DNA from: Leucoraja ocellata
Lineage: Eukaryota
Direction of reading: 5' to 3'
DNA: 64,000 nucleotides
NCBI GenBank assembly: GCA_036785375.1
Contig: JAWMAR010000085.1
Span: 7,502,001 to 7,566,000 of the forward strand
Made by a program: the position numbers and the translations under genes. The notes beneath the pieces were generated by a model. The model saw only the letters and a program-made list of their open reading frames with translations. It was not told the DNA's origin and did no database searches. This document shows, one piece after another, positions 2,079-64,000 of this stretch. The stretch's first letter is position 1. Each line of letters opens with the position of its first letter.

Positions 2079-3616
2079 GTGTGTTCTGAGTGTATCTTGC
2101 AGTGAAGTTTGCAATAGATTTCATTGTACTTAACACAATACAGCACAGGAATCGCCTCTTCGCATAAGTTGATAAGTCATAGGAGTAGAATTAAGCCATT
2201 CGGCCCATCGAGTCGAGTCTGCCATTCTATCATAGCTGATCTATCTTTCCCTCTCAACCCCATTCTCCTGTCTTCTCCCTGTAACCCCTGACATCCCTGC
2301 TAATCTCAAATCTGTCAATCTCTGCCTTTGAAATACCCAATAACGGCCTCCACAGCTGTCAGTGGCAATGAATTCCACAGATTCACCACCTCCTGGCTAA
2401 AATAATTCCTCCTCATTTCCCTTCTAGATGTACGTCCTCTGTGCCCTCTGGTCCTAGGTTCTCCCACCACACTCTCCCTCTCCACATCCATTCTATCCAG
2501 GCCTTTCACTCTTCTGCCCACAATGTCAGCCTTCACCGTGCAAAGTTAAACTAATCTTCTCTGCCTGCACGTGATGCATATAATGTTGCCTTTGCTTATT
2601 TCTCCTACCAAAATGCATCATCTCACATTTCTCTGCATGAAACACCATCTACAATGTATCTGCCTACTTCATCAGTTTGTATCCTGCTGTAATGCAATAT
2701 TATAGAACAGAGAATAATACAGGAACAAGCCCTCCTGCAAGTCCATGCCGAACATGATGCCAAGCTAAACTAATCTCTTCTGCCTGCATGTGATCCATAT
2801 CCCTCGATTCCCTGCATATCCATGTGCCTATCTAAAGGCCTCTTAAACGCCACTATTGTATCTCCCTCCACCACCACCCCAAGCAGCGCGTTCCAGGCAT
2901 CTTTGCACTAGACGATGTACCCTTTATCTTTGCACTGTGGACGGCTTGGTTGTATTCATGTTTGCACGCACCACCAGACTCAGGAACAGTTTCTTCCCCT
3001 CCGTTATTGGCCTTCTGAATGGTCCTGCCATAAGCTAGGGCATTATCCAATTCACCTCTATCCCATTGAGGACATTGGACTTTGTCTAAGGAACAGGTGC
3101 ACTACAATGCTGTTAACTATATTCTGCACTCTGTATCTTCCCGTCGCTCTACTATTGTTCTTGAGTTTGGCTTGATTGTATTTATGTATAGTATCATCTG
3201 ATCTGATTGGATGGCACGCAAACCAATGCTTTTCACTGTTTCTGAGACGTGCACGTGACAATAATAAACAAACAAGCGGATATAATTGCCTGCAATTCCA
3301 AATTCTGGATGGTGCAAAGTTGCTGAAAACACTGGTTCTTTTGAAGGTCCAGGACATTTGATGGATTTGATTTTCAAACTTTGAAAAAATCTTTTAAAGT
3401 AGCTTCTTGTTATAAAATACTGCACGGCTGAATGAAAATAGCATTAATGTTCAATATTATTGAAGAAAATATTTGTGAACTTGGGCCACATTATATGTTA
3501 GAGGCCAACATTGTGGAGTAAGTGTAAATGTTCTGTAAAGTTCTGATTCTCTTTTAAACAAGGATCTCATTTTCAGTAAAGAGATTTCAGTGCCAGATCA
3601 ATAAAGTAAAGACCAG

Positions 3617-3756
3617 GTATACAAAAATGCTGGAGAAACTCAGTGGGTGCAGCAGCATCAATGGAGCGAAGGAAATAGGCAACGTTTCGGGTTGAAACCC
3701 TTCTTCAGACTTTTGTGTACCTTCGAATTTCGAGCATCTGCAGTTCCTTCTTAAAC
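3617..3756. mobile_element. 140-bp Penelope-derived mini-element with hammerhead motif, partly inverted, 14-bp TSD
   Basis: AAAGTAAAGACCAG at 3603-3616 and 3757-3770. Minus-strand CTGAAGA-A-GGGTT-TC-AACCC-GAAA-CGTT within 3681-3710. Confidence 0.8.
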
Positions 3757-4495
3757 AAAGTAAAGACCAGATTGTGAGAGTGAATTAAAATATTTCAGTG
3801 AGACAAATAAAGACATCGCTGTATGTGGGATGGTTGCACGCTCCATTGCAAGGCTATTCCAAGTTTGCTACGGTTAGATTTACCCATTAATGTGTCCATA
3901 CTTGAATAGTTTACTGATAATCATCAACTATAATTTTCAATGGAGGAAAGGTGTTGCTGAAAGAAATATTGGACGATCAGCAAATGGTGGCAGACCTGTA
4001 CCTTTAAGGCCAAGATACGACTCTATACTTTTATGAAATGTGAAACTTGCAGAATACAAGGTGGCGCCAAAAACGTGGCGACTCTTCTTGTACTGCCTCA
4101 GTGTGATCTACCGTTCTTACACTACAATCATTGCACTCTTGTACTTGGGTATGAATGTGCTTACGTGTAGTAAGATTTTACTGAATGGGACGTGACAATA
4201 AAGTATCATCGAACCATTGAAGAAGCCAAAAGGCTGTGAGATAAGGAGAGAGGCGTGAACTGTGAAGCCAGTTCATAAGTCCCAGGAGCTAAATTGGGCT
4301 ATTTGGTCCATCGAGTCTACTCTGTCATTCAATCATGGCTGATCTGTCTTTCCCTCTCAACCCCATTCTCCTGCCTTCTCCCCGTAACCTTTGATGCCTT
4401 TATCTAGAGGAAAGGGAAAGAGAAATAGGTTTGTTTGTATTTAATGACGTGCATTATAAAGCTTATTTATTAATTTGTCTCCTTTTGCACTCCAG

Positions 4496-4603: not shown

Positions 4604-6602
4604 GTAATTTTAGACGTTATGCTCTGGATCTATTATAGTGTGTGATACCAAAATAGCTTCACCGGGCTGATTGACTCTCGGCAGCTCTGCACCTTCAGAC
4701 AGCTACGGTGACTTTTCACGGCAGCTGCAGCCACGTCGGAATCTGGTCCGTCTTTAATTCACACCGTCCCACTCCTAGAGCTTTACGCCAAATCTATACG
4801 TCTTGGGGAATGTTGCATTTGTCAGGGATGCAGTTACATGATGTGCAGGGTGCAAAAGACAATGCTGTTTAGTTTTAGAGATACTGCGCGGAAACAGGCC
4901 CTTCAGCCCACTTAGTCCGCACCGACCAGCAATCCCCACACATTACACTACCCTACACACAGTAGCGACAATTTCCACTTGTACCAAGCCAAGCCTACAA
5001 ACCTGTACGGAGAAAACCTACATGGTCACGGGGAGAACGTACAAACTCCATACAGACAGCTCCTGTAGGCAGGATCAAACCTGGGTCTCCGGCGCTGTAA
5101 GGCAGCAGCTCTACCGCTGCACAACCATACCGTGCTGCCCTGTGCCTCTTTAGATAGGCACAAAATGCTGGAATAAATCAGCAGGTCAGGCAGCATCTCT
5201 GGAGAAAAGGTATAGGTGACGTTTTGGGTTGGAACCTTTGTAGTTTAGAGATCCAGCATAGAAAGTGGCCCTTCAGCCCACTGAGTGCGCGCCAACCATC
5301 AACCACCCATTCACACTAGTTGCACCATTCCCTACACACTGGGGACAATTTACAGACACCATTTGGACAGTTACTTAGCTAGGAAATGGATATGGGCCAA
5401 ATGCGGGCAAATGGGATGTTTAGATGGGGTATCTTTCTCGGCATGGACATGTTGAGCCCAAAGGCCTGTTGCTGTGCTGCATGACTCTGACCTACGGACG
5501 CACTCATCTTTGGGATGTGGGAGGAAACCAGAGCACCTGGAGGAAACCCACACAGTCACAGGGAGAACATGCAAACTCCACACACAGACAGCACCCTGAG
5601 GTCAGGATCGAACCCGGGTCTCTGTGATGTCTTTCTTTCATGGGCGTTTGAATTGCTGAACCAGGCTGTGATGCAACCCTCTGGAATGTTATTGTCTTGG
5701 TTGTATTGTTATTGCCCCGGTTGTATTATTGTGACACAAATGAAGTGACATTTCTCAAATCCTGACATTATGTAGATTTTAGTTATTGTGCGTCTAGTAT
5801 CATGGAGTGGCGCGGTGGCAGAGTTGCTGCTTCACAACGCCAGAGACTCGGGTTCAATCCTGACTACGGGTGCTGTCTGTACGGAGTTTGTACATTCTCC
5901 CTGTGACCGCGTGGGTTTTATCTGGGTGCTCCAATTTATTCCCACACTCCAAACTCGTGCAGGTTTGTAGGTTAATTGGCTTCTGTAAATTGTAAATTGC
6001 TACTAATGTGCAGGATGGTCCTAGTATACAGGGTGATTGCTTGTTGGCACAGACTTGGTCGGCTGAAGGGCCTGTTTCTGCATTGCATCTCTAAAGTCTA
6101 AAGCAAAGTGGAGTTGTATAGTTTTAAATTAAGTTTCAGAAAAGGCTCCCCCGGCCCACCGAGTCTGCGCCGACCAGCGATGGCCCCGTACACTAGCACT
6201 GTCCTACACACTAGAGAAAATTTGCAATGTACAGAAGCCAATTAACCTACAGCCTGCATTGGATGATCAGCCATGATCATATTGAATGGCGGTGCAGGCT
6301 CGAAGGGCCGAATGGCCTACTCCTGCACCTAATTTCTATGTTTCTATGTCTTTGGAGTGTAGAAGGAAACCGGAGCACCCGGAGAAACCCACACGGTCAC
6401 AGAGAGAATGCACAAACTGTAGAAACAGCACCCGTAGTCAAGATCGAACGCGTGTCTATGGTGCTGTAAGGCAGCAACTCTACCGCTGCGCTATTGTGCT
6501 GCCCATTGTATCGTGGGTATAAATATGATTGAATTGAATTTATAAATGCCCATTGTCTTGGGCCATTCATTAATCCAAATGATTTATCACCTTTCCCCAT
6601 AG

Positions 6603-6902
6603 ATGTTTTGTATGAAGTGGAATGGTACTTCCAAGGAATTCATTTTAATGCCACACTGAGTCCTTTGGTGATGGTGGATCGGGGATCAGTAGTCACCTAC
6701 CAGGAAGACTTTGGGACGCGTGGGATCAGCGTTGAACGAGTTAGCACGCACAGCTTCCGACTGCGAGCCCACTGTGTGGACCGTGCCTTCACTGGAGATT
6801 ATTTTTGCAAAGTGACGCCCTGGATTAAATATGAGGCTGAAAAATGGGTCCAAATCCCTCCACAGGAATCCGCTCAGCTTTCCATGCGCATCGATATTTC
6901 AG
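6603..6902 (+). CDS. PTGFRN: PTGFRN exon, C-terminal part of the last Ig domain
   Basis: Acceptor tttccccatag|AT and donor TCAG|gttagt. Reads DVLYEVEWY...ISVERVS...GDYFCKVTPWIK. Confidence 0.9.
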
Positions 6903-7799
6903 GTTAGTGGAGACTTGCTCAGAGATACCTGAGAACAAATGTGTAGGGACGAACTGCAGATGCTGGTTTACACCAAATATGGACACAAAACGCTGCAGTA
7001 ACTCTGCAGATCAGGCAGCATCTCTGGGGGAAAGGAATAGGTGACTTTTCGGGTTGACTCCTTTCTTTAGACTGAGTGTCAGGTGAGAGGGAAACTAGAG
7101 GTATGAAAAGGTACAAAGAACAAATTAATTGTGCTTGGGCAGCTTATAACCCAATGGTATGCATCTTGATTTCTCTCATTTCAAGTAACCCTTGCATTCC
7201 CTCTCTCTCCATCCTTCCCTCGACTAGTTGTCCTACCAGTTTCCACTGTCATCCTGCTTAGTTTCACTGTTTGTTTCACCTCCATCACCTTTTCCCACAG
7301 CCAACAATGGACCATTGTGGGCTCCACCTTTCTTGATCACCATTGCTGGCTTTGATTTGTTCTTTTCACACCTTTTATTCACTTGTTTTTTTGTACCTTT
7401 TCATACCTCTAGTTTCTCTCTCCCCTGACCCTGAAGATGGGCCTTGATCTGAAATGTCATCTATTCCTTTTCTCCAGAGATGCTGCCTGACCCGCTGAGT
7501 TACTCCAACAATTTATGTCTTATCTACCAAACAAGACTCCAGTGCTTCATTCACCCTGTGCGAAGATATATCAGCTGAAAAAGGGTCCTGACCTGAAACC
7601 ATCTGCCTATCAACTCCACCCCCCCCCCCCCCCCCCCCCCCCTGTCTATATCCACCTATCACTCCCTGCCTGAGGTCATCTGTTGCCAGTCCTGATCTGT
7701 CCTGGCTTTTTCTTCCTACCCCCCACCGCCCTTTTCTACAATCAGTTTGAAGAATATCCTGACTCAAAACGTCACCTATCCATGTTCTCCAGAGATAGA

Positions 7800-9453: not shown

Positions 9454-10447
9454 AAGGTGCAGGAGTAGGCCATTCGGCCCTTCGAGCCAGCATCGCCATT
9501 CAATGTGATCATGGCTGATCATCCCCAATCAGTACCCCATTCCTGCCTTCTCCCCATATCCCCTGACTCCTCTATCTTTAAGAGCCCTATCTAGCTCTCT
9601 CTTGAAAGTTTCCAGGGAACCGGCCGCCACCACCCTCTGAGGCAGAGAATTCTACAGATGCTGTCTGACCTGCTGAGTTACTCCAGCAATTTGTGTTTTG
9701 TTTTGATTTTTCACCTTAAATTAAAACTCCTGAACGTTAGATTTTAAGTAAAGTGTTCAAATGTTATCGGGGAGGAATTTCAATCCTTGTTTTTTTCTTG
9801 AACATTGTTAGGAACCAAAAGAATGAGAGTTTAATTGAGCAGATGAGTGAATAAAAAAAAACTTGAATAAGATTAAAATGCAAAGTGCTGGAGGAACTCA
9901 ACAGGTCAGGCAGCATCTGTGGAGGGAATGAACAGGAAATGTTGCTGGCTGGGACACTTCTTTAGGCTCTCTGCCTTTCAGGCCAGGGCCCTGGGTTTGA
10001 CTGGTGCTGTCCGTACGGAGTTTGCACGTTTTCCCAATGACTGCATGCATTTTCTCTGGGTGCTCCAGTTTCCTCCCACATGCCAAAGATGTACAGGATT
10101 GTAGGTTAATTGGCTTCGGTAAAATTGTAAATTGTCCCTAGTGTGTGGGATCGCTGGTCGGCGCGGTCTTGGTGGACCCAAGAGCCTGTTTCTCGCCGTA
10201 TCTCTAAAGTAAACTGATAAGATGCGGGTAATAGAAACAGGAACTAGCTTACTGAGTTGGATGATCAGCCATGATCATATTGAATGGCGGTGCAGGCTTG
10301 AAGGGCCGAATGGCCTACTCCTGCACCTAATTTCTATGTTTCTATGTTAATGGTGTGAGGAATTGAATTCTGAAGATACTTGTACTGACTTTTTTATTTC
10401 CACTTTTTGCTGTTTCCCTTCCCCCCCCCCCCCCCCCCCCCCTCCAG

Positions 10448-16900: not shown

Positions 16901-19081
16901 ATGGGTACATGGATAGGAAAGATTTAGAGGGATGTTGGCAAATGTGACCAGCTTAGATGGGGCATCTTGGCTAGCATGGACAAGTTGGGCTGAAGGGACT
17001 GTTTCCATACTGAAAAACAATGACTCTAAAAGAGTGCCTTTTCCTCCAACTGATGTGTATAAGTTTGTCTACTTGTAATACTGAGTCTTCATAAGTCCTT
17101 GCAAAACCATTATTGTGTGCAGTTCTGGTTGTTGCTTTACAGGAAGGATGTGGAGGCAAGGAGAAGATGCCGAGGAGGTTTACCTCCTGGATTGGATGGT
17201 TCAAACTATAAGGAGAGGATGGTCAAACTTAGATTGTTTTGTCTGAACTGTAGGAGGCTGAGGGGAGACCTGGTAGAAGTGTATAGAATTATGGAACGCG
17301 TACTGTAGATAGGGAAGACAGAACTTGTTTCCCAGGAAGGTAATGTCAAAGACGAGTTGGTGAGAGGACGGTTCATTTGCCTGATAACAGATGGGAAGAC
17401 ACTGTCCCTGAATCTGGAGGTGTGTGTTTACAAGCTTCTGCACCTCTTTCCTGATGGGAGCGGGGAGAAGAGGGAATGACAGGGGTGAGACACATCCTTG
17501 ATTATGCTGGTGGCCTTGCCGTGGAAGCATGAAGTCAATGGAACGGAAGTACATGGAGTCAATGGAAGGGAGGTTGCTTTTGCTTGATGGCCTGGGCTAT
17601 GAAACCTTTGGTTTTTGACACAATTATAGCAAGATGCAAAGTATTTTGTTTAATTAACAATTGTTTAATTATCTCACAATTTCTGAGCATGTTGGAAGAC
17701 TGCAAAAAAGGATTTTCTAGAAAGATGACAGGGTTATGAGAGGCTTGTGATCAATGAGCTCAATTTAAATGAGTCGGTGGAGTAAACATGGAGAAACATC
17801 AAGTGAAAGGGAATGGTACTAAATTGGCATCCACTGCCTGAATGAGCAGAGGAAGCATATTCAAAAGTAATATTTCAAAAGGGAATTAGATTAATATATA
17901 TAAAAAGGAAATAAAAGTCACAAGGTACAAGAGAAAAAGATACAAGATACAATTTATTTGTCATTAGGGTTAGGTTTAGGGTTACCCCTCAAAAAGTAGA
18001 GAAGCAAAATTATTTGGTTCATTTTATCAAAATGGGAGCCCTATTTAATTTTTGGATACAAAGAAATGCAGATGCTGGTTCACACAAAAAAATGACAACG
18101 TGCTGGAGTAACTCATTGGGCCAGGCAGCATCCCTGAAGAACTTGGACAGGTGATGGTTCGGGTCTGAAAAAGGGTCCCGAACTGAAACTTCACCTATCC
18201 ATGTTCTCCGGAGATGCTGCCTGACCCGCTGAGTTACTCCAGCACTTTGTGTCCTTTTGTGTATTAATTAGTATCTGCAGTTCTTTGTTTCTAAACTTTA
18301 CCTCTAACAAGCCGAATTACTAACCATAAACGTAGACACAATCAGTCTAAAGAAGGGTCTTCAGTCTGAAATGCCAACTGTACGTGTTCTCCAGAGATGC
18401 TGCCTGACTCACTGTGTTACTCCAGAACTTTGTGCCCATATTTAATCTATTCTGCTTTAAATCTTTTTCATACAGTATTAAAGGAATTATCTAATAAATA
18501 GCATTGATATCACATTGCAATGTAAAGTAATCACACTGACTTGTCCATATAAAGTTTAATTTAGTTTAGAGATACAGCATGGAAACAAGCCCTTTGGCCC
18601 ACCGAGTCACTGCCGACCATCGATTGCCCTACACTAGTTCTATCCTACACTCTAGAGGCAATTTATAGAAGCCAATTAACATTTAGGTTTGGGAGAGCTG
18701 ATAAGGAGGGGGTTTAAATGGTGCTATTTATTTCTAACACCCTCTATTGTACGATATTAGTTGATGGGAGGGAGTGTAGAGATTAAACCACCTGAGCTGG
18801 ATAGATCCCCGTACATTATACCACAAAATGGCAGCAAAAGACAGAGACAGGCCCGTCTCTGTTGAAACCTTCTTTATGGTTTTGTCGCCATCTGTTCTTC
18901 CTCCTCCCAGTAGCGTGGAGGGTAAGGGCTCGAGGGGGCAGCTGCAATTCTGACACAAGTTGCATTTTAATTGACAGCCCCCACCCCCCTGATTTCACCA
19001 CCTGAGCGTCTCGCAGGTCTGCTCCCCAGTCCCTCACCTGTTTGTTCCAATCTCACCCCCGTAGGCTTCATTCCCCCGTGA

Positions 19082-19360: not shown

Positions 19361-22300
19361 ACATGTGACAATAATAAACCTAAACCTACATCGAAATGAT
19401 GGTGTAAACATGAGCATAAAATGTTGCTCTAATTTACTGGCTCAATATATACCTGCAGCAATTAGACACCGATTGTGTACGGGTGTTCAGAATGGCAATG
19501 CTCTAAGCTGTCATTTGAACTTTCTGTTATTGTGGAAACATATGCTCTTGTGAATTTATATACACGGTGAGCTGAAGAAAAGCTCAGGTACAGCACAGGA
19601 ACAGGCCATTCAGCCCACTATGTCTGTGCTGAGCATGATGCCAGGTTAAACCAATCACTGCCTACACATAATCCATATCCTTCCATCCTCTGTCTATCTA
19701 AAAGTCTCTGAAACTACACTATCATTAAAGGTCTGAGGAAGGGCTCTGATTCAAACAGTCAACTATGTCTCGCAGAGAAGCTTCCTGACACTCAGTTACT
19801 ACAGCATTTTGCTTCTATCTGCAGTTCTTTGTTTCTACATCCTACAATCGATTACCGTGCTTTGTCCCGCTCACACCTCTTTTCCAGCTTTCCATCCCCC
19901 CTATCAGTCTGAAGAAGGGTCCCGATCCGAAGCGTCTTTTGTCCATTCCCTCCACAGGTGCTGCCTGACCCGCTGAGTTCCTCCAGCATTTTGTGTTTTA
20001 CTCAAGATTCTGGCATCTGCAGTTCCTTGTGTGTCTTGTTTACAGGTACATGCTTTGCTTCAGTGAGGAGTCAAGTCAATGAAAGATTATTATTGAACTT
20101 TGCACAAGATCTTTGCTGCCTTTGATGTCTGGCCATGGTTTGAGGTCTGAGAAATATGTCAAAATTGCCTTCAACCGTGTAATCTTTAGTAAGATTACAG
20201 TTTAGCTAACGCCAAGCTTGGCCCTGGGGTGAATAAACACTGAGGAATTCATGCAGAAATATGCATGTATATGTCGAAATATCAAGAAGAATATTACTGT
20301 TATTGTAAAACACTCGGCCGAGGCTGAGTGACGAGACTCCCAGCAGTCAGACCAAACACTCCGGAGCTGTATTAAATCATCTGGATTCCAGTTCAATTAG
20401 TTACAATGCCGATCCTTTACAAAATTAAAGGCCCATTGTTCAGACATTCCCGGTCTGTCTGATTGGGTTAACGGTTGGTGATGTCTGACGGCACTGGGCC
20501 TGTACTCGCTGGAGTTTAGAAGGATGAGGTGAGACCTCATTGAAACTATCCGAATAGTGAAGGGCCTGGATAGAGTGGATGTGGAGAAGATGTTTCCACT
20601 AGTGGGAGAGTCTAGGACCAGAGGTCACAGCCTCAGAATCTCTTTTAGAAAGGAGATGAGAAGGGTTTCTTTTAGTCAGAGGATGGTGAATGCGTGGAAT
20701 TCATTGCCACTGATGGTTGTGGAGGAGAAGTCATTGGGTATTTTTAAGGCCGAGATTGACAGATTCTTGATTAGTAAGGGTGTCGGGTGTCATGGGGAGA
20801 AGGCGGCAGAAATATTTTGAGAGGGAAAGAAAGATCAGCCATGATTGAATGGCGGAGTAGACTCGATGGGCCGAATGGCCTAATTCTGCTCCTAGAACTT
20901 ATGGTCCAACTGATGGCAGGGACAATCAACTAGAGTTTGGACCATAAGACACAGTAGCCAAATACCATTCTCCTGCCTTCTCCCCATAACCTTTGACATC
21001 CTTACCAACCACACCACTAGGGCGGCGCTGTGGCACAGCTGCCATTGCCTCTCAGCGCCAGGAACCCATGTCCGATCCTGACCTCCGGTGCTGTCAGTGT
21101 GGAGTTTGCACGTTCTCCGTGTAACCGTTTGGTTTTTCTCCAGGTGCTCCAGTTTCCTCACACATCCCAAAGGGTTTGTAGGTTAATTGGCCTCTGTAAA
21201 TTGCCCCTACTGTTTAGGGAGTAGATGTGAAAGTAGGATAACATAGAACTAGTGTGAATGGATGATCGCTGGTTGGCGTGGAATCGCTGGGCCGAAGGGC
21301 CTATTTTCATGCTGATAAATGTATATAAAATTACGAGAGGCAGAGATAGAGTCAGCCAGAACCTTTTCCTAGGGTGGAAATGTCAAAGAGTAGAGGGCAT
21401 AACTTTAAGGTGAGAAGGGAAAAGTTTAAAGGAGATGTGCAGGGCAAGTTTTTTTACACAGAGGCTGGTGAATGCCTGGAACATGCTGCCTGGGATGGTG
21501 GTGGGGGCAGACACGATAGTGGCGTTTAATCTACTTTTACAGAGGCACATGGAGATGCAGGGAATGGAGGGATATGCATCACGTGCAGGCAAATAAGGTC
21601 ATTTTATCTTGCCATTATTCGGCACAAACATTGTGGGCCAAAGGGCCTGTTCCTGTGCTGTCATTTTCTGTGTCGTTAGATGAGTAAATAACACAGAATA
21701 GATTGTTAAAGTTACGTCACTGAAGGGTAATAGAGCAAGAACTCTAACGTACCCATTAAGATAAATTAGTAAGTTCTATAATTTGCTAATATGGGTTCAA
21801 ACACAAACCAGAGTGGCATTTTCATTTTGACCTGCGCATTTAATTATATGTTGGTTTCTTTCTACTTGGAAGATCAGTTTCAGTATTAAGGAACAAGGCA
21901 GGAAGGAACGCTCCACTGCAATTGGGGCGGTACGGTGGCACAGTGGGAGAGCTGCTGCCTTACAGCACCGGAGACCTGGGTTCGATCCTGACTAGCTGTG
22001 CTGTCTGTACGGAGTTTATACGCTCTCCCTGTGACCATGTGGGTTTCCTCCCACACTCCAATGATGTGCAGTTTTGTAGGTTAATTGGCTTCCCTAAATT
22101 GTAAGTTGTCCCTAGTGCGTAGGATAGTGCTCATGGACGGGGTGATCTCTGGTCGGCATGGATTCGGTGGGTCAAAGGGCCTGTTTCCATGCTGTATCTC
22201 TAAAATCTAAATTTGTAAGGGTCCTGACCTGAAACGTCGCCTGTCCATTCCCTCCACAGATGCTGCCTGACCTGCTGAGTTCCTCCAGCACTTTGTGTTC

Positions 22301-23014
22301 TGCTCTTGATTCCAGCATCTGCAGTTCCTTGTGTCTCCATTTGTTGCTGCCAATCTTGTGACCTGGAACACCGTGACTGACAGGGAAGTGGGAAATGATT
22401 AATTAGTAATTGTCAAGAAGAAATTTGACGGAGAGAGGGAATTGTCAGGACATTGGGGAGGGTGTAGGGGAGTGGGATAATTGGGTAGTCCTTGAAAACA
22501 GCCGTCACGGGCAGAGTTATTGAACAAGAAGAGTTGACTACCTCACCCAGCTGACATGCCCAAACATATTGTAGAAGGTGCAGCTTGATAATGTGAGCTC
22601 TGTGAGCTGTGTAGGCTGATCTTATGTAGAGGGAGTGGAGAAATGAGTCAATATGAGCTCCACAATGTGAAAGTGAAGGCAATGCCAAGTTAAATTTATC
22701 TTCTGGTTTCAAAATTAAATAATTTCTGCTTCCTCCACAAGCACCATGGAAAAAAAAAACCTGAAATTAGAGGCAGACAAGGAGTAATAGATAATATATT
22801 CTTGTGATAATAATTTGCCAATTCTACTAAATCAATATGTAGAAACGAAGAACTGCAGATGCTGGTTTATACCAAAGATAGACACAAAGTGCTGAAGAAG
22901 GGTCTAGTTCATGATCCGAAATGTCACCCATCCTTTCCCTCCAGAGATACTGCTGACTCATTGAGTTCCTCCAGCACTTTTCATCTATTCAGTCAAAGTT
23001 CTGATCAGAATTCT

Positions 23015-24151: not shown

Positions 24152-25075
24152 AGATAGACAAAAGTGCTGGAGAAACTCAGCGGGTGCGGCAGCATCTGTG
24201 GAGCGAAGGAATAGGCAACGTTTCGAGCCAAAACCCTTCTTCAGACTGATGTGGGGGGGGGGTGGGGGGGGGGGGTGGGAGGGGGGGGGGGGCAGGAAGA
24301 AGAAAGGAAGAGGTGGAACCAGTGGGCTGAGAAGGGGCGGAGAAAGTAAGGACTACATGAAATTGGAGAGGTCAATGTTCATACCGCTGTGGTGTAAACT
24401 ACCCAAGCGAAATATGTGCTGTTCCTCCAATTTACGGTGGTCCTGACTCTGGCCATGGAGGAGGCCGAGGACAGAAAGGTCAGATTTGGAATGGGAGGGG
24501 GAGTTGAAGTGCTGAGCCATCGGGAGATCAGGTTGGTTAATGCGGACCGAGCGGAGGTGATGGGCGAAGCGATCGCCAAGCCTACTCTTGGTCTCGCCGA
24601 TGTAGAGCAGCTGACACCTAGAGCAGCGGATGCAATAGATGAGGTTGAAGGAGGTGCAGGTGAACCTCTGCCGCACCTGGAAAGACTGCTTGGATCCTTG
24701 AATGGAGTCAAGGGGGGAGGTAAAGTGACAAGTGTAGCATTTCTTGCGGTTGCAAGGGAAAGTGCCCAGAGAGGGGGTGGTTCGGGTGGGAAGGGACGAA
24801 TTGATCAGGGAGTTACGGAGGGAGCAGTCTCTGTGGAAAGCAGATAGGGGAGGAGATGGGAAGATGTGGCCAGTGGTGGGATCCCGTTGGAGGTGTTGAA
24901 AATGTTAACCCACTGATTGGATGACAATGTAGGGTGGAAGGTGAGGACAAGGGGGACTCTGCTCTTGTTACGAGTGGGGGGGATGGGGAGTGAGACTAGA
25001 GTCACAGGGTATAGAATAGACCCTGGTGAGAGCCTCATCTATGGTAGAGGAGGGGAACCCCTGTTCCCTGAAGAA
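24152..25075 (-). mobile_element. Penelope-like element (Neptune-type): RT C-terminus, GIY-YIG endonuclease and downstream hammerhead motif
   Basis: ORF 24353-24676 reads NLIYCIRCSRCQLLYIGETKSRLGDRFAHH (GIY-YIG); RVPLVLTFHP lies upstream. Hammerhead-like motif at 24217-24247 on the same strand. Confidence 0.9.
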
Positions 25076-25486
25076 TTACCTTGTTCATTCCTCCTTCTCC
25101 CTGTTCCCATCTGGCAGAAGGTACAGAAGCTTGAAAGCGAGCACCATCAGACTCGGAGGTAGACAAAAATGCTGGAGAAACTCAACGGGTGAGGCAGCAT
25201 CAATGGAGCAAAGGAAATTTGGGAACGGCTTCTTCCCCTCTGTTATCAGGCTTCTGATCAGCCCTTCCATAAGCTAGGGTACTGTTCGGTTCACCTCTAC
25301 CTCATTGAAGACATTGGACTTTGTCTCTGGAACTGGTGCTGCTACAATGCTGAGAACTATATTCCGCACCATGTATCTTCCCCTTAGCTCGACCTGTTGT
25401 AGAAACAAGGATATGCAAAGGATGATTTGCAAAAAAAGACACAAAATGCTGGAGTAACTCAGGGGGTCAGGGACATCTCTGGAGAA

Positions 25487-25603
25487 GGTACATAAAAATG
25501 CTGGAGAAACTCAGCGGGTGCAGCAGCATCTATGGAGCGAAGGAAATAGGCAACGTTTCGGCCCGATTTTCGATTTTCCAGCATCTGCAGTTCCTTCTTA
25601 AAC
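25487..25603. mobile_element. Penelope-derived mini-element nested in an older relative, 14-bp TSD
   Basis: ACATCTCTGGAGAA at 25473-25486 and 25604-25617. Same termini and inversion as 3617-3756. Confidence 0.78.
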
Positions 25604-25874
25604 ACATCTCTGGAGAACATGGACAGGTGACCTTTTAGGTCAGGCCCCATCCTCAGATGGAAGAAGGGTCCCGACCAAAAACAAAAAGCTTTTCACTCTA
25701 CCTGGGTGCACATGACCATAATAATAAACTAAATTAAACTAAACACATACATTTTCTCCATAGATGCTGCCTGACCCACTGAGTTCCTCCAGCTCTTTGT
25801 GACTCTACCTATTTTACCTGGGTTTGACTTGATTATATTTATATATAGTATTATCTGATCTAATTAGATAGTAA

Positions 25875-27218: not shown

Positions 27219-30047
27219 ACTATGTGTGGAGTTTGCACGTTCCCCTATGACTGCGTTGGTTTCTTCCGGGTGCTTTGGTTTTCTCCCACATTCCAAAGAT
27301 TTGGAATGGTAGGTTAATTGGCCTCTGTAAATTGCCCATGTGTGTAGGGAGTGGATGAGAAAATGGGATAACATGGAAGGAGTGTGAATGGGTGATCGAT
27401 GGTTGGCGTGGATTCGTACCCGGGTCTCTGGCGCAGTGAGGCAGTGACTCCACCCGCTGCATCGCTGCGCCATGCTTGCCGACACTGGACTGCCACTTCT
27501 GCTTGGGACTGTGGAGGAGGAATGCGTGTTTCATGCGTGTGTATTGAATGAGGAACAGAAGGCTTGTGGGTCTCAAACCTTCTGTGTGGTTACCCTCAGG
27601 AATGAAGAACAATTTCAAGAAGTACTTGCAAAGTGTAAGGAGCTCTTTAAAGCAAATGTTCTTAACAGCATTTGGTACTCCATAGCCAGTTAGTCCACGC
27701 GCAAACTGTGGGAACAGCACCTCATATTCCGCTAGGGTTGCTCACAACCCAATGGTATGAACATCGAATTCTCCAATTTTAGGTAACTACTAACCTACAA
27801 CCCCCACTCCCACCCTTCCCTTCCCTTCCCCACCACCCCTCTCTTGTCCAACCATCTGTCTAACAAACCCATCCCGCTCACCTGTATCCACCTATCACTC
27901 CCTGCCTGAGGTCACCTGTTGCCGCCTCTGGTTTGTTCTAGTATTTTCTTGATTCCAGTTCCTGCCCTCCACCCCCCACCACCTCACAATCAGTCTGAAG
28001 AAGGATCCCGACCTGAAACATAACCTATCCACGTCCCCCAGAGATGCTGCCTGACCCGCTGAGTTACTCCAGCATTTTACGTCTAGTTTTAGTATAAACC
28101 AGCATCTGCAGTTCCTTTCTATTACATTTCATTTCATTCCACCTCTCACTCGTTGGGCTTTGTCCTGCCCCCTCCTCTCCTCCAGCTTACTCCACCCCCC
28201 TCCCACCACCACCACAATCAGTCTGAAGAAGGGTCCCATCCCAAAACGTTGTATTTCCGTCTTCTCCAGAGATACTGCTTGATCTGCTGAGTTACTCCAG
28301 CACTTTGTGTCTTTTTGTTGTAAAGCAGCATCTGCAGTTCCTTGTTTCTCCATGCTGTTGGCCTTCATTTTGCCCAAAGCTAGATCAGCCTTCCCATTGT
28401 TGTTCGGTGATAAGGTCTCATGGTGGTGTTGGTGCAGAGACTACCTTGCCTCCCACTAATTCCCTCCAACCTAGAGGACCCTTTCTCATGTGGATGGCTA
28501 TCTAGTTCATGGGTACAGCATGGAAACAGGCCCTTCAGCCCATTGAGTGCACGCCGACCATCCATCATCCATTCACACGGGTTCTATGTTATCCCACTTT
28601 CTCATCCACTCCCGACATACTGGGGGCAATTTACAGAGGGACGATTATTCTACAAACCCTCACGTCTATGGGATGTGGGAGGAAACTGGAGGAAACCCAC
28701 GCAATCACAGGGGGAACATGCAAATTACACACACACACAATGAAAGTGAGTGATCTTTTTATTCCTCTCTCTATGGAGGATTGAGCTCAATGTGGTGACG
28801 TAAGGGTAGGATGTCAAGGGAAGGGTAAAGGCAGGGTGTGGTGTCGGAATGACTGTGGGAGATTAGGCAAGGATTAATAGACTGTGTGACGAACAACTTC
28901 TCTCTGTCTCTTACGAAGCAAGAACACAAAGGAGGGTGTTTTCTGTATGGGGTTTACCTTGATAAATCTTGTAAGGACATGAAATATCTCTTGACGTCGC
29001 TCCTTCATACGATGATTCTTGCCCCAGTCGCCTCCTCTTTGACTCATAGTCATGGAGTCATACAGCATGGAAACAAGCCCTCTGGTCCAACTTGCCCACG
29101 GGAACAAAATGTCCCATCTACACTAGTCCCACATGCCTGTGTTTGGCCCATATCCCTCTAAACCTGTCCTATCCATGTACCTGTCTAAACGTTTCTTACA
29201 CGTTGCAAAGTCCCTGATATGGTGCCCCCGATAGATCTTCCACCCTCCCCCCTCAACTCGTGCGGAGAATCAGCGGTGACAGAGTCGCTGCCTCACAGCA
29301 CCGGATAGAACACATGTCTATCTTCATGTCACATAGGTTGATTGACATCTGTAATAGGCCAACATGTTTGTAGGTTAATTGGCCCTCTGTAAATTTCCCC
29401 TGGAGTGTAGGAAGTGAAAGAGAAAGTGGGATAACGTGGAACTAGTGTAAACGGGTGATCGATGGTCGGCATGGACTGGGCAGGCCGAAGGGCCTGTGGC
29501 CATGCATTCCAATCTCTCCACGTGCATTTGCTCTGCTCACTGGGGCAATGATGACCATTTGCTGAAAATCTGCCATCTCGATCCTGCACCATCTCTCAGT
29601 AGAAAGATACAAAAAGCTGGAGTAAATCAGCGGGACAGGCAGCCTCTCTGGAAAGAAGGAATGGGTGACTTTTCAGGTCAAGACCCTTCTTCAGATCGAT
29701 GTCAGGGAAGAGGGAGATACATAGATAGGGAAGTGCAAGGTGTGAAATCACGACAAAGGGGGTGGTGATCAAGTAAAATGTAGACCAGGTCATTGTTAGC
29801 TGGGAGAAGGTAACAACAAAGTAAACAGAGATAAAATGTAGTCGGAGACAGTCAGACTGGTCGGAGAACTGGGAAGGGGAGGGATGGAGAGGAAAGCAAG
29901 GGTCTCATTGTTTAGTTTATTATTGTCGTATGCACCGAGGTACAGTGAAAAGCTTTTAGTTATGTGCTATCCAGTCAGCTGAAAGACTATACATGGTTAC
30001 AATCAAGCCGTCCACACAGTACAGGTACAAGATAAAGCAAATAATGT

Positions 30048-30252
30048 GTAGGAAGGAACTACAGATGTTGTTTCAAACTGAAGATAGACACAAAAAGCTG
30101 GACTTACTCAGCTGGACAGGCAGCATCTCTGGAGAGAAGGAATGGGTGACGTTTTGAGACTGAAGAAGGGTCTCGACCGGAAACATCACCCATTCCTTCT
30201 CTACAGAGATGCTGCCTGTCCCGCTGAGTTACTCCAGCTTTTTGTGTCTATA
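30048..30252. mobile_element. Penelope-derived fold-back mini-element with hammerhead core in the loop, 9-bp TSD
   Basis: Inverted arms at 30084-30154 and 30181-30251; CTGAAGAAGGGTCTCGACCGGAAAC between them; AAATAATGT at 30039-30047 and 30253-30261. Confidence 0.8.
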
Positions 30253-39648: not shown

Positions 39649-39659
39649 TAGTTCAAAGC

Positions 39660-39753
39660 TCAGAATATATAGTATAATAAACAAGGAAAAGTTCAGTACT
39701 ATATATATATATAGTACTGAACTTTTCCTTGTTTATTATACTATATATTCTGA
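39660..39753. repeat. Perfect 94-bp spacerless palindrome
   Basis: TCAGAATATATAGT...GTACT(AT)6AGTAC...ACTATATATTCTGA, centred between 39706 and 39707. Confidence 0.92.
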
Positions 39754-39820
39754 ACTTTGTTTATTATATGTGTGTGTGTGCGTTTTTCCGTACACAATAC
39801 ACACACACGCACACATATGT

Positions 39821-39853
39821 GTCTGAAGAAGGGTTTCGGCCCGAAACGTTGCC
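39821..39853 (+). ncRNA. Minimal type I hammerhead ribozyme motif (Penelope-associated); best-preserved copy
   Basis: GT-CTGAAGA-A-GGGT-TTCG-GCCC-GAAA-C-GTT-GC: catalytic core, stem II with UUCG loop, palindromic ACGT stem III. Confidence 0.7.
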
Positions 39854-41095
39854 TATTTCCTTCACTTCATAGATGCTGCTGCACCCGCTGAGTTTCTCCA
39901 GCATTTTTGTGTACCACACATATATATGTATACACACACATAAAAACATGCAACAATAGTGCAAAATTAAAACCAATGTAACCAAGTCCTTATAGTTCAG
40001 AGCATATTTGGAGGTTGTAGTATTCAATAGCCTGATGGTTGTTGTGAAGAAGCTGGTACTGATCCTGGATGTTACAGTTTTCAGGCTCCTGTACTTTCTT
40101 CCTGATGAGAGGAGTGAGATGAGAGCGTAGCCAGGGTGGTGTGGTCCCTGATGACGCTGGCTGTCTATTTAAGGCAGCAACTCCCGTAGTTCCGTTCAGT
40201 GGTGGGGAGGTCAGTACTAGTTGAATGTCACAAAAAAATGCAGAAATTGTCACCACAAAATGTGACTGTGTCTGTACAGTAGCTGCTCTGAATAGTCCAA
40301 CCAAACGCCATCATTTTGACATTTTGAAGAAGGGTCTCAAACTGAAACGTCACCTATTCCTTTTCTCCAGAGATGCTGTCTGACCCGCTGAGTTACTCCA
40401 GGTTTTTGTGTCTATCTGCAGTCATTTCGACATATTTGTTATCTACAATCGTGGCATCTATATATTCAACAGACGTTGTTCAGTAATTGCTTGTGGGTTA
40501 GGTCCCTCTGAACTTTCAGTGAACTTCACTTATTAAGAAGTACTTTAGAAATACAAATAGATTGAATTATTTGGCCCCAGTGTAGAATAATATAGCTCAG
40601 GAACAGGTCCAACATGTCTATGCCGGCAAAAATATACCCCATCAAAGTTAGTTCCATTTGTCTGCATTTGACCCATATCCTTCAAAAATTTTCTTATCCA
40701 TGTATTTGTCCAAATGTCTTTTAAATGTTGTTATTGTACCTGCCTCAACTCCCTTCTCTGGCAGCTCGTTCCATAAACCCACCACCCTCTGTGTGAAAAA
40801 GTTGCCCCTCAGGTTCCTATTAAATCTTGCCTCTCTTACCTTAACCCTCATTCCACTGGTTCTTGATTCCCCTGCTTTGGGTAAAAGACCCTATCTATTC
40901 CACTCATGATTTTGTACACCTCCATAAGATCACCCCTCTCCCTCCCGCGCTCGCTCCTGGGAATAAAGCTCTAGCCTGCCCAACCTCTCCCTGTAGTACC
41001 CAGAGAAAACCCATGTGGTCACAGGGAGAACGTACAGACAGCACCTGCGGTCAGGATTGTACCCGGCGTTGTGAGGCAGCAGCTCTACCGCTGCA

Positions 41096-43003
41096 GATTC
41101 AGATTCAATTTAATTGTCATTGTCAGTGTACAGTACAGAGACAACTAAATACATTTAGCATCTCCCTTGAAGAGCGACATAGCAAACGATTTGAATAAAT
41201 AATAATAAGTGTCCGGGGGGGGGGGGGGGGGGGTGGTGATTGGCAGTCACCGAGGTACGTTGTTGAGTAGAGTGACAGCCGCTGGAAAGAAGCTGTTCCT
41301 CGACCTGCTGGTTCGGCAACGGAGAGACCTGTAGCGCCTCCCGGATGGTAGGAGGGTAAACAGTCCATGGTTGGGGTGAGAGCAGTCCTTGGCGATGCTG
41401 AGCGCCCTCCGCAGACAGCGCTTGCTTTGGACAGACTCAATGGAGGGGAGCGAGGAACCGGTGATGCGTTGGGCAATTTTCACCACCCTCTGCAATGCCT
41501 TCCGGTCGGAGACAGAGCAGTTGCCATACCATACTGTGATGCAGTTGGTAAGGATGCTCTCGATGGTGCAGCGGTAGAAGTTCACCAGGATCTGAGGAGA
41601 CAGATGGACCTTCTTCAGTCTCCTCAGGAAGAAGAGACGCTGATGAGCCTTCTTGATCAGAGTAGAGGTATTGTGGGTCCAAGAGAGGTCATCGGAGATG
41701 TTGACTCCCAGGAACCTGAAGCTAGAAACACGTTCCACCTCCGTCCCGTTAATGTGGATGGGGCTGTGCGTGCCGCCTCTGGACTTCCTGAAGTCTACAA
41801 TGAGCTCCTTGGTCTTCTTGGAGTTAAGGGCCAGGTTGTTGTCAGTGCACCATGCTGCTAAGTGCTGGACCTCCTCCATGTAGGCCAGCTCATCGTTGTT
41901 GCTGATGAGGCCAATCACCGTTGTATCATCTGCATACTTGATGATGGTGTTAGTACCATTTACAGGTGTGCAGTCATAGGTGAAGAGGGAGTAGAGGAGG
42001 GGGCTCAGCACACAGCCCTGAGGAACGCCGGTGTTCAGAGTGAGGGTTGAAGAGGTGTGCTTGTCTAACCTCACAGACTGGGGTCTGTTGGTTAGAAAGT
42101 CCAGTATCCAGTTGCAGAGGGAGGGGTCGATGCCCAGGTTACCGAGTTTGGTGATCAGTTTTGATGGAATAATGGTGTTGAATGCTGAGCTGTAATCGAT
42201 GAACAGCATTCTTACATAAGTGTCTCTGTTGTCGAGGTGGGAGAGGGCGGAGTGAAGTGCCGTTGAGATGGCATCCTCCGTACTCCTGTTCTTGCGGTAG
42301 GCAAACTGATAGGGATCCAGTGTGGGGGGTAGGCAGCTTTTGAGGTGTGCCAGGACCAGCCTCTCGAAGCACTTGGTGATGATGGGGGTAAGTGCAACTG
42401 GGCGGAAGTCGTTGAGGCTTGCCGCAGTGGAGTGTTTTGGCACTGGCACGATGGAGGTGGCTTTAAGGCAAGTGGGGACCACTGTTTGGGCAAGTGACAG
42501 GTTGAAGATGTCAGTCCAGACGTCTGTCAGCTGCGCAGCACAGGCCCTGAGCACGCGCCCGGGGATGCCATCAGGGCCAGCAGCCTTACGTGCATTAGTC
42601 CTACTCAGTGCCACGTACACGTCGTAGGGGGTGAGTGTGAGGGGTTGGTGATCGGCAGGTAGCACAGCCTTGATGGCTGTCTCTAGATTGTCCCTGTCGA
42701 AGCGGCCATAGAAGTGATTAAGCTCCTCAAGGAAGGAGGCGTCGCTGGATGTGGGGGTGATGTTGGAGGGTCTGTAGTCCGTGATGGCCTGGATGCCTTG
42801 CCACATGCGTCGGGGGTCGGAGTTGTTGTTGAAGTGCTCCTCAATCCTGAGCTTATGGCAGTGCTTGGCCTTCCTGATGCCCCTCTTCAGGTTAGCCCTG
42901 GATGAACTGTAGGCTCGAGCATCGCCTGACCTGAAAGCGGTGTCCCGTGCTTTCAGCAGTAGATCCCGTGCTTTCAGCAGTAGTCCCGTGCTTTCAGCAG
43001 TAG
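41096..43003 (-). mobile_element. Young Rex/Babar LINE, 5'-truncated, with uninterrupted RT ORF, inserted in a SINE
   Basis: ORF 41247-43025 contains [33 protein letters not shown] and YADD. (CAGATT)n tail on the + strand; TGCA duplicated at 41092 and 43006. The annotated ATG lies in flanking DNA. Confidence 0.93.
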
Positions 43004-43554
43004 AATGCACAACTGTGTTGCTCATGTTGAGAGGAAATGGTTCAAGTCTCAGTCTGAGGCCTGGCTGGAGATTGATGGTGTGACAGATGTCTGCGACATC
43101 ACCTCATGCCTGTAGCTTCAATGAGGTTAAAAAGTGGTCAACAGATTTAATCATGCACATCATTTGCATCAGTGAAACCAAGTGTACGGTAACATCCTCT
43201 ATCTGTTGGTGCAATTGTTCCGATAACCTATATGTTCAATGTGTAGAGAAACAAAGAACTGCAGATGTGGTTAAAACATAAAAACGTTACTTTCAACTAT
43301 AGAGATACAGCTCGGAAACAGGCCCTTCAGCCACCGAGTGATGAATGATCCCCATACACTAGCACTACCCTACACACTAGTGACAATTTACAATTTTTAC
43401 CAAAGATAATTAACCTACAAAGCTGCATGTCTTTGTCGTGTGAGAGGAAACCCGGAGCACCTGGAGAAAACCCACACTGTCATGGGGAGAATGTATAAAC
43501 TCCGTACAGACAGCACCCATAATCAGGATCAAGCCTAGGTCTTAGGCGCTGGAA

Positions 43555-43849: not shown

Positions 43850-44565
43850 TAAGGCAGCACCTCTACCGCTGTGCCACCGTGCTGCCCTAGTTTGCGAGAT
43901 GTGTTGTGGAGACTGCAGCCCTGATATGGAGGATGCCTTGTGTTGGTGCGTAAACAGCCCAGCTGGTACATTCGTGGTTGAAAAAGGATTCTGTGGATCA
44001 GGATGAGAGAATTCATTACGTTGTTGTGTATAGCAGGCTGCTGGAACTGGAATTTCTTGCTTCAAGAGCGAACTGACATGTGAATTAAACTCAGAAGAGG
44101 GAGTGGCAGTCAAGAAATCTGACAAAGATTACCTTTAGATAAAGGCACAAAATGCTGGAGTAACGCAACGGATCAGGCAGAATCTCCGGAGAACATGGGT
44201 ATATGATGTTTCAGGTCGGGACCCTTCTTCACATTCTGATCAGTCTGAAGTTCCTTGTTTTTAAAGATTACCTTAACCAAGTTAACTTAAACACAGCAGC
44301 ATAGCTGATGGAGCTGCTGCCTCACAATGCTTGAGACCCGGGTTCGATCCTGACCTCGGGTGCTGTCTATGTGTGAAGTTTGCACGTTCTCACTGCGACT
44401 GCCTGGGTTTCCTCCAGGTGCACTGGGTTCCTCCCACATCCCAAAGATGTGCGGGTTTGTAGGTTAATTGGCCCTCTGTAAATCACCCCTGGTGTGTAGG
44501 GAGTGGATGAGAAAGCGGGATAAAATTGAACTTGTGTGAACGTGTGATTTATGGTCGGCATGTAC

Positions 44566-46165
44566 ATAGAAACAAAGAAACATAGAAACATAGAAAATAG
44601 GTGCACGAGTAGGCCCTGCACCGCCACTTCGAGCCTGCACCGCTATTCAATATGATCATCCAACTCGGTATCCTGTACCTGCCTTCTCTCCATACCCCCT
44701 GATCCCTTTAGCCACAAGGGCCTCTTAACTCCCTCTTAAATATAGCCAATGAACTGGCCTCAACTACCTTCTGTGGCAGAGAATTCCAGAGATTCACCAC
44801 TCTCTGTGTGAAAAATGGTTTTCTCATCTCGGTCCTAAAAGATTACCCCCTTATCCTTAAACTGTGACCCCTTGTTCTGGACTTCCCCAACATCGGCAAC
44901 AATCTTCCTGCATCTAGCCTGTCCAACCCCTTAAGAATTTTGTAAGTTTCTATAAGATCCCCCCCTCAATCTTCTAAATTCTAGTGAGTACAAGCCGAGT
45001 CTATCCAGTCTTTCTTCGTATGAAAGTCCTGACATCCCAGGAATCAGTCTGGTGAACCTTCTCTGTACTCCCTCTATGGCAAAAATGTCTTTCCTCAGAT
45101 TAGGAGACCAAAACTGTACGCAATACTCCAGGTGCGGTCTCACCAAGACCCGGTACAACTGCAGTAGAACCTCCCTGCTCCTATACTCAAATCCTTTTGC
45201 TATGAATGCTGACATACCATTCGCCTTCTTCACTACCTGCTGCACCTGCATGCCTACTTTCAATGACTGGTGTACCATGACACCCAGGTCTCGTTGCATC
45301 TCCCCTTTTCCTAATCGGCTACCATTCAGATAATAGTCTAATTTCCTGTTTTTGTCACCAAAGTGGATAACCTCACATTTATCCACATTATACTGCATCT
45401 GCCATGCATTTGCCCACTCACCCAGCCTGTCCAAGTCACCTTGCAGCCTCCTAGCATCCTCCTCACAGCTAACACTGCCACCCAGCTTCGTGTCATCCGC
45501 AAACTTGGAGATGTTGCATTCAATTCCCTCGTCCAAATCATTAACATATATTGTAAATAGCTGGGGTCCCAGCACTGAGCCTTGCGGTACCCCACTAGTC
45601 ACTGCCTGCGATTCTGAAAAGGACCCGTTTACTCCTACTCTTTGCTTCCTGTCTGCCAGCCAGTTCTCTATCCATATCAATACTGAACCCCCAATACTGT
45701 GTGCTTTAAGTTTGTATACTAATCTCTTATGTGGGACCTTGTCGAAAGCCTTCTGAAAGTCCAGATATAACACATCCACTGGTTCTCCCTTATCCACTCT
45801 ACTAGTTACATCCTCGAAAAATTCTATGAGATTTGTCAGACATGATTTACCTTTCATAAATCCATGCTGACTTTGTCCAATGATTTCACCACTTTCCAAA
45901 TGTGCTGCTATCCCATCTTTAATAACTGACTCTAGCAGTTTCCCCACTACCGATGTTAGACTAACTGGTCTGTAATTCCCCGTTTTCTCTCTCCCTCCAT
46001 TTTTAAAAAGTGGTGTTACATTAGCTTCCCTCCAATCCTCAGGAACTACTCCAGAATCTAAAGAGTTTTGAAAAATTATCACTAATGCATCCACTATTTC
46101 TGGGGCTACTTCCTTAAGTACTCTGGGATGCAGCCTATCTGGCCCTGGGGATTTATCGGCCTTTA
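44566..46165 (-). mobile_element. CR1 LINE, 5'-truncated
   Basis: ORF 44931-46175 contains KSPGPD, NYRPVSLTS, LDFQKAFDKV, GVPQGSVLGP and FADD. (TTTCTATG)n tail. Confidence 0.93.
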
Positions 46166-61480: not shown

Positions 61481-61578
61481 ATTGTGACTAAACTAACATT
61501 TAAACTAAACTAAAATTAAAGTAAACTAAACCTCCTAGCTAAACACAACACACTAACTGGCGCTTGCTTTATTTGCAG

Positions 61579-63650: not shown

Positions 63651-64000
63651 GTGAGCGTTTCAACATCGAGTGTCTGTGATACTTTGTTTTGATGCAAGGG
63701 ATTTACTGCCTAGAGGCACAGTCAGAGTCATTCAGCACGGAAATAGATCCAACTCACCCACGCTGACCAAGATGCACCCATCTACACTAGTCCATGTGGC
63801 CCATATCCTTCCAAGCATTTCCTATCCATGTACCAAGTATCGCTTATATTCAATGATCACTGATACATTATTGTCACGTGTACCTAGGTACAGTCAAATG
63901 CTTTGTTTTGCACACTTTTCTGGTACCTGTACCAACAAAGTTACAAAAGTTCACCAAACAGTCCTGTCTTCTTATAGTACCTGCCTCAACTACCTCCTCT

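Follow-up and report, generated by a model that had tools for sequence, protein, structure and literature searches.

Two short insertions, element 1 (3617–3756) and element 2 (25487–25603), lie in the 64,000-nucleotide stretch of Leucoraja ocellata DNA analysed here (hereafter, the window). Both are very probably extremely 5'-truncated terminal-repeat (pLTR) insertions of a Neptune-like Penelope element; their likely origin is dual target priming, with two fixed sites on the RNA as start points. Dual priming in this Neptune-like family is likely from the sequence layout described below, taken together, by analogy, with the biochemistry of an anole Penelope protein.

Layout and target-site duplications of elements 1 and 2

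Each element consisted of an antisense arm followed by a sense arm, enclosed by target-site duplications (TSDs):

3603–3616, no strand: element 1, left TSD (14 bp)
3617–3711, − strand: element 1, antisense tail-less pLTR arm, 95 bp
3712–3756, + strand: element 1, sense arm, 45 bp, made up of about 10 nt of the end of the pLTR body and the 35-bp tail (3722–3756)
3757–3770, no strand: element 1, right TSD
25473–25486, no strand: element 2, left TSD (14 bp), in a target that is itself an older copy of the pLTR
25487–25566, − strand: element 2, antisense tail-less pLTR arm, 80 bp, truncated inside hammerhead stem II and without the CUGAAGA core
25569–25603, + strand: element 2, sense arm consisting of the 35-bp tail only, after a 2-nt filler
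25604–25617, no strand: element 2, right TSD

Both 14-bp direct repeats were perfect (3603–3616/3757–3770 and 25473–25486/25604–25617). By comparison, the longest exact flanking repeat in 300 random intervals was 9 bp and, with a gapped scorer, one of 2000 random intervals matched the score of the 14-bp TSDs. In element 1, the outer end of the antisense arm coincided with the tail junction, while its inner end was located 3 nt upstream of the hammerhead core, or up to about 10 nt upstream if an imperfect TGTG microhomology is counted; the sense arm duplicated about 11 nt from the outer end of the antisense arm. In element 2, two filler bases separated the 80-bp antisense arm from the sense tail. 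Thus, the outer termini of the two elements agreed and their inner junctions differed. The junction of element 2 could have arisen later, by loss of 26 nt from one like that of element 1. When eight stretches were folded, both elements included, none beat its shuffles (z from −1.4 to +0.6; −1.1 and −1.4 for the two elements).

Several claims of an earlier, sequence-only reading of this DNA were borne out: the two 14-bp TSDs exceeded what chance gave in random intervals, alignment of the arms confirmed that both termini are common to the two elements, and the order of an antisense ribozyme-side arm and then a sense 3' end was found in both. The common inversion breakpoint that it had proposed was not recovered, the junctions being 95/45 bp in element 1 and 80 bp/2 filler bases/35 bp in element 2, with the TTTTGTGTACC motif absent from the junction of element 2. 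Its description of both as hammerhead elements was not confirmed: element 1 carries a putative minimal core, and element 2 stops inside stem II.

Copies of the terminal repeat in the window

Using a profile built from 17 stretches of the window, we identified the pLTR as 48 pieces (nhmmer, E < 0.02), which occupied 6.8% of the window; no match at E < 0.01 was obtained in five block-shuffled windows. The youngest subfamily comprised elements 1 and 2, the copies starting at 39819 and 25158, and a copy linked to an open reading frame (ORF), all of which formed one clade (87–96% identity, support 0.96). Elements 1, 2 and the 39819 copy were 93–96% identical to each other and 89–90% identical to the ORF-linked copy. 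The three members other than elements 1 and 2 were as follows:

24152–25077, − strand: 5'-truncated, non-inverted copy of the same subfamily, with the ORF 3' end, the 3' UTR and a hammerhead pLTR ending at the tail junction
39819–39914, + strand: simple, non-inverted short copy of the same subfamily, which begins immediately ahead of the hammerhead core and extends as far as the tail junction
25158–25219, − strand: another member of the subfamily, about 60 bp long, which stops at the tail junction

The membership of these five copies in a common subfamily indicates that a single subfamily gives rise to direct insertions, both long and short, and to short inverted ones. An 11-bp TSD was observed around the 24152–25077 copy (24141–24151/25078–25088), and a 9-bp TSD, inside a (CA)/(TA) microsatellite, around the 39819 copy; none was found around 25158–25219. 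Overall, 9 of the 28 intervals tested, with boundaries set by eye, gave a 9–15-bp repeat at p 0.013 or lower, and nothing convincing was found in the other 19. Some boundaries were set after the first TSD scan, so these p-values are generous. The TSDs were 57–77% AT. Partial-tandem pairs of the pLTR were also observed on the + strand at 19730–20034, 27951–28349 and 48729–49076 (second units starting at 19867, 28183 and 48959, respectively), and those at 27951 and 48729 came after remnants of a Penelope ORF end.

Link to a Penelope open reading frame

In the 24152–25077 copy, the pLTR came after the 3'-terminal part of an ORF, which encodes a Cys linker and a GIY-YIG domain (open frame 24901–24356; the GIY-YIG match, at a Pfam E-value of 5.8e-4, is below the curated cut-off). 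This frame showed 57–66% identity to elasmobranch proteins (from whale shark, devil ray, zebra shark, bamboo shark and stingray) and 44% identity to a 902-aa protein carrying both a reverse transcriptase (RT) and a GIY-YIG domain; the RT core of this subfamily was absent from the window. The Cys linker of the fragment reads C-x4-C-x2-C, a motif present in all 61 full-length relatives (860–960 aa), and a Cys linker between RT and GIY-YIG is given as a mark of Neptune-type elements (PMC3846280). The pLTR belongs to an endonuclease-bearing, Neptune-like Penelope element, the putative clade assignment resting on the linker and not on an RT tree.

An ATG frame ran through the pLTR body and tail in some copies and was broken in others. 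As a candidate ORF N-terminus, the tail gave no match to an N-terminal profile of the 61 relatives. A profile search for the tail at an ORF start returned 17 candidate matches, all of 70–276 aa, and a further search for the tail at this position gave no matches.

Further decayed remnants of Penelope ORFs were located by tblastn at 47900–48860, 56736–56912, 60093–60179 and 27694–27783. The region of the Penelope stop codon resembled a splice donor (xx/GTAA or GTAG) at about 24357, 7183, 27780 and 48580, and near 13100. In tandem copies, an intron could thus span the entire 3' UTR as far as the ribozyme; the donor-like sequence is equally well accounted for by codon constraint. Judged by eye, the C-terminus of the zebra shark protein P0003 appeared to continue across the 3' UTR and enter a related pLTR; on the example of this protein, gene models in such genomes appear to be contaminated by the Penelope element.

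Inverted composites and two fixed 3' ends

The 3' ends of the 48 arms fell mainly at two places: 18 at the end of an optional 35-bp tail, 24 near the tail junction about 35 nt earlier, and 6 elsewhere. The tail end is also the end of the profile, yet the flanking sequence beyond it was unrelated between copies. The termini that elements 1 and 2 have in common correspond to the two ends of this 35-bp Penelope tail.

In total, nine head-to-head composites were identified, starting at 3617, 6940, 18053, 22839, 25398, 25487, 30048, 44136 and 46284. Besides elements 1 and 2, these were:

6940–7525, no strand: long inverted composite, with arms that extend upstream, by 58 and 314 nt, to take in 3' UTR and ORF-end sequence
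18053–18440, no strand: inverted and partial-tandem composite of three arms, with a weak TSD of about 11 bp
22839–22986, no strand: inverted composite with a junction close to, but differing from, that of element 1; TSD doubtful (p 0.07)
25398–25806, no strand: older inverted composite, hosting element 2
30048–30252, no strand: inverted composite of a tailed minus arm and a tail-less plus arm; TSD of 9 bp exact, or 13 bp with one mismatch
44136–44262, no strand: tiny inverted composite that belongs to an older subfamily; its 12-bp TSD (44124–44135/44263–44274) is perfect
46284–46370, no strand: smallest inverted composite (about 87 bp), with a degenerate TSD of about 15 bp; its plus arm is below the profile threshold

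In eight of the nine composites, a tailed arm was joined to a tail-less one (p 0.02 in a binomial test at 0.5), and this was the case in six of the seven that remain when the two discovery elements are set aside. The exception to this polarity rule was found at 18053–18293, where both adjoining arms carried tails at the junction. A TSD enclosed both arms in five composites at p 0.013 or lower, and a sixth passed the same test if its tandem third arm was included; in three, the TSD was doubtful or not found, the latter being the case around 6940–7525. The position of the inner junction varied among the nine composites, often over 1–6 shared bases, and the overlaps between arms were often long (about 70–90 nt at 30048 and 25398). 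In the sense arm of the 44136 composite (44240–44262, + strand), the start of the ribozyme jumped straight to the tail across a common TCTG-N-AG, which suggests a template switch within the pLTR. The intervals 62536–62793 and 9654–9984 were left out of the composite count because their arms converge.

Hammerhead motif

A putative minimal type I hammerhead core was identified in element 1 at 3708–3685, both by pattern and by alignment, and cleavage is predicted, from the position in the hammerhead consensus, between 3681 and 3680. The consensus of 17 arms contained the core boxes, the unpaired base before stem II and GAAA-CG-UH. In the 17 aligned copies, 84% of the stem cells were paired, versus 8–45% when the stems were slid; covariation in the stems did not exceed that of shuffles. 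None of the 14 matches from an Rfam scan of the window was to a hammerhead or to any other family of relevance. The motif of the aligned cores corresponds to the minimal type I form described for Penelope repeats (PMC4209133).

Position of the 5' ends

For the analysis of truncation points, we used 48 5' ends, corresponding to the 48 profile arms minus two interrupted continuations (25400 and 25742) plus two sub-threshold junction arms (44240 and 46350). These ends were read by eye in one window, arms within a composite are non-independent and short pieces are under-detected, and Fisher p-values for the clustering described below overstate the case for these reasons. The ends were spread between the interior of the tail and a point about 850 nt upstream of the core, and none of the 48 was located at the predicted ribozyme cleavage site (profile positions 78–80).

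Sixteen ends were clustered at profile positions 40–51, a hotspot of 12 nt around the start of the core (the C of CUGA being position 50), and 11 of these 16 were at positions 47–50. When only the 21 ends bounded by a junction or a TSD were considered, 10 of the 13 arms reaching positions 40–51 ended there, with 5 endings in 109 arm-bins outside the hotspot; among all arms reaching it, 16 out of 27 ended there. The sequence upstream of the 16 hotspot arms had a background-like profile score (below zero in 15), unlike that of upstream-running arms (above zero in 8 out of 10), and decay of the upstream tract therefore does not explain the hotspot; the case at 62793 was ambiguous by score.

The sequence at the hotspot consisted of a pyrimidine tract followed by CAG/TCTGA. 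Among the 11 arms running further upstream, YAG was present in eight and TCAGT in seven, and the pyrimidine tract with YAG preceded the core in 8 of the 11. This sequence can be read as an initiator, which we take TCAGT to resemble, as a splice acceptor, or as helix I of the hammerhead itself. The intron of Drosophila virilis Penelope ends at helix I, at a spot matching the hotspot (PMC4209133). A spliced template was considered and set aside: no copy in the window joined the ORF end directly to the ribozyme, and the two matches to the corresponding pattern had an unspliced context.

Run-off at the 5' end of the RNA is the likeliest cause of the hotspot, at somewhat under an even chance. Stalling at the pyrimidine tract or splice-acceptor region ranks below it as an appreciable possibility. 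We favour run-off because a polymerase copying splicing intermediates should have no reason to halt precisely at the acceptor. Against run-off, the start of D. virilis Penelope is placed about 120 nt upstream of its intron's end (PMC2377424), five ends lay 4–9 nt upstream of position 49, and the imperfect microhomology at the junction of element 1 may hide a longer cDNA. Run-off on a full transcript as template also needs the tail to be at the start of the ORF.

Proposed origin by dual priming

In the origin that we propose, the GIY-YIG domain, as the putative nuclease, would make a staggered cut of 9–15 bp, the range of the observed TSD lengths. Reverse transcription would then begin from one DNA end at the tail end, and from the other DNA end 35 nt upstream, at the tail junction; both fixed termini were observed, and the view that they are start sites is borrowed from the anole element. 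The two cDNAs would terminate early, in many cases just upstream of the hammerhead core, where ends were observed, and the free ends would be joined through a few bases of microhomology or filler. The product would have the layout that was observed, namely a TSD, an antisense tail-less arm, a sense tailed arm and a second TSD. Priming from one end only would give a simple direct copy, such as those at 39819 and 24152.

The purified anole protein nicks and extends both strands and starts at two internal sites that bracket the tail, and in this element ribozyme cleavage is dispensable (PMC11167929). The available text of that source reports no strand difference in start site, so the anole data do not themselves explain the polarity rule. 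Also against the proposal, the long arm overlaps at 30048 and 25398 are unlike one-template twin priming.

Ribozyme cleavage does not set the insertion ends: with none of the 48 5' ends at the cleavage site, a ribozyme-bounded RNA is unsupported. The independently mobilised, ribozyme-bounded unit put forward in the sequence-only reading also finds no support in view of the differing junctions and of the ORF-linked and simple non-inverted copies in the same subfamily. Nor is the pair special, or an undescribed system as had been suggested, since the same repeat occurs in 48 pieces and nine composites and the layout has been published for Penelope (PMC3846280, PMC8557442, PMC11167929). The attribution to Penelope stands, the repeat adjoining the end of a GIY-YIG ORF at 24152–25077, and the other option of that reading, stereotyped twin priming at a fixed site, fits the two fixed termini and the polarity seen in eight of nine composites. 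It had associated random truncation points with ordinary 5'-truncated copies; within the window, these points do vary, yet a strong 5' hotspot is present.

A self-propagating, non-autonomous lineage is a quite unlikely explanation. In this case, a unit extending from just before the ribozyme to the tail would be transcribed on the strength of its own internal promoter, and the Penelope enzyme would copy it in trans, as in the case of a SINE, with inversion occurring at insertion. The three closest copies (elements 1, 2 and 39819) are indeed all short, the 5' ends cluster at the initiator-like TCAGT, D. virilis Penelope has an internal promoter (PMC2377424), and pLTRs act in trans (PMC3846280). 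However, the copies grouping apart from the ORF-linked copy number three, TCAGT is equally a splice-acceptor context and part of helix I, and the hotspot recurs in several old subfamilies with long UTR- and ORF-linked copies, so that a separate lineage is unneeded.

A retrozyme-like RNA, with ends set by hammerhead self-cleavage and the inversion as a fixed part of the mobile unit, is largely refuted and highly improbable. The shared termini, the minimal hammerhead of element 1, the similar junctions of element 1 and the 22839 composite, the possible derivation of element 2 by deletion and the proposed use of Penelope enzymes by retrozymes (PMC7229834; bioRxiv 10.64898/2026.07.22.740005) speak for it. 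They are set against the lack of 5' ends at the cleavage site, the coreless element 2, the differing junctions of the nine composites, the single and inverted state of both elements with no tandem array, and folding no better than that of shuffles. Moreover, with the ribozyme antisense to the tail, one RNA could presumably not use both normally.

Inversion after or apart from priming, through fold-back or template switching of one cDNA or through adjacent insertion, driven by near-repeats inside the pLTR, is hardly credible: short common motifs do occur at junctions (CTG at 22892, GTC at 18163, a palindromic centre at 44240) and element 2 sits in an older copy of the same pLTR, but a single TSD encloses both arms in five composites, and the inverted arm has its outer end fixed at the tail junction, an end also used by non-inverted copies and not predicted by fold-back or independent insertion.

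If the insertions arose by dual priming, such minimal, TSD-bounded inserts, nine per 64 kb, reduce the Penelope structure to two priming sites and one junction. The whole genome should supply thousands of natural events with which to test dual priming and locate the 5' end of the RNA. The way in which Penelope-like elements build inverted and tandem structures is described as an open question (PMC8557442); the value of the present elements is modest, as cheap test material for it, and they do not stand as a new system. It is unlikely, though conceivable, that the short unit from the initiator-like TCAGT to the two priming sites is a transcription unit of its own, strong-stop copied onto both target strands, and that it represents a self-propagating, ribozyme-bearing, SINE-like lineage of 95–135 nt in cartilaginous fishes. 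Insertions of such a lineage would record the dual priming of the enzyme base by base.

Surroundings in the window

The window contained immunoglobulin-domain exons among many LINE fragments. Seven immunoglobulin-like exons were observed on the + strand (454–948, 1649–2089, 6533–6907, 49601–50230, 51835–52392, 61557–62006 and 63164–63679), two of which were confirmed as Pfam V-set; they appear to belong to two neighbouring genes, possibly of IGSF3/CD101 type. Elements 1 and 2 were outside the frames of these exons. Long open frames of LINE-type RT were present on the − strand at 41247–43103 (618 codons), 57995–59290 (431 codons) and 44931–46181 (416 codons), with Pfam RVT_1 confirmed for the first and the last. 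At 39654–39759, a 106-bp AT-rich palindrome, 98% perfect and centred on a (TA)n run, gave only sub-threshold microRNA matches.

Comparison with known systems

The layout, the tail, the trans-acting pLTRs and the origin of retrozymes from pLTRs are already in print. An inverted pLTR, an optional 30–40-bp tail and a TSD have been described (PMC3846280, PMC8557442, PMC11167929), an inverted 5'-truncated copy with a 30–40-bp tail is typical of the class (PMC8557442), and non-autonomous retrozymes derived from Penelope have been proposed (PMC7229834; bioRxiv 10.64898/2026.07.22.740005). Neither the 5'-end hotspot nor the tailed/tail-less polarity rule was found in the literature searched, itself available in part and with subscription papers, Repbase and Dfam outside its scope.

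The closest likeness is to Neptune-type Penelope-like elements (PMC3846280, PMC8557442), which share the GIY-YIG ORF end, the Cys linker, the pLTR with a minimal hammerhead (a putative one here) and the optional tail (35 bp here), as well as the inverted 5'-truncated copy, the partial tandems and the TSDs (9–15 bp here). The insertions described here differ in being shrunk to 87–205 bp, without an ORF.

In Pen2a_Av of Adineta vaga, the inverted pLTR shows an overlap with the direct one (of 15 bp, versus about 11 bp in element 1), with a 31-bp tail and a 9-bp TSD (PMC3846280). This element and the common inverted form of D. virilis Penelope also have a one-sided tail, one TSD around the whole and inverted repeats of variable size (PMC3846280, PMC2377424); in contrast to the present elements, they enclose an ORF and belong to the Penelope/Poseidon group.

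PAc/Poseidon of Anolis carolinensis is similar in that two adjacent internal start sites define the tail, both strands are cut and extended, no reads end at the ribozyme cleavage site and the targets are AT-rich (PMC11167929). It belongs to another clade, and its tail is inside the ORF start. The available text of the same source reports neither a 5'-end hotspot nor a tailed/tail-less polarity for this element.

Metazoan non-LTR retrozymes, found in a cartilaginous fish among other vertebrates, are likewise short, non-coding and pLTR-related, with a type I hammerhead; they differ in consisting of head-to-tail repeats with a ribozyme in each unit and in forming circles of 170–400 nt (PMC7229834; bioRxiv 10.64898/2026.07.22.740005). 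The elements described here are single and internally inverted, with a putative minimal or a broken ribozyme and ends away from the predicted cleavage site.

Finally, twin-priming inversions of L1, which is primed at poly(A), have an antisense 5' part and a sense 3' part within one TSD. Element 2 resembles them closely, its sense arm starting exactly at the template position of the outer end of the inverted arm. Unlike in L1, there is no poly(A) priming, arm overlaps can be long, and it is the element, not chance complementarity, that determines the second site.
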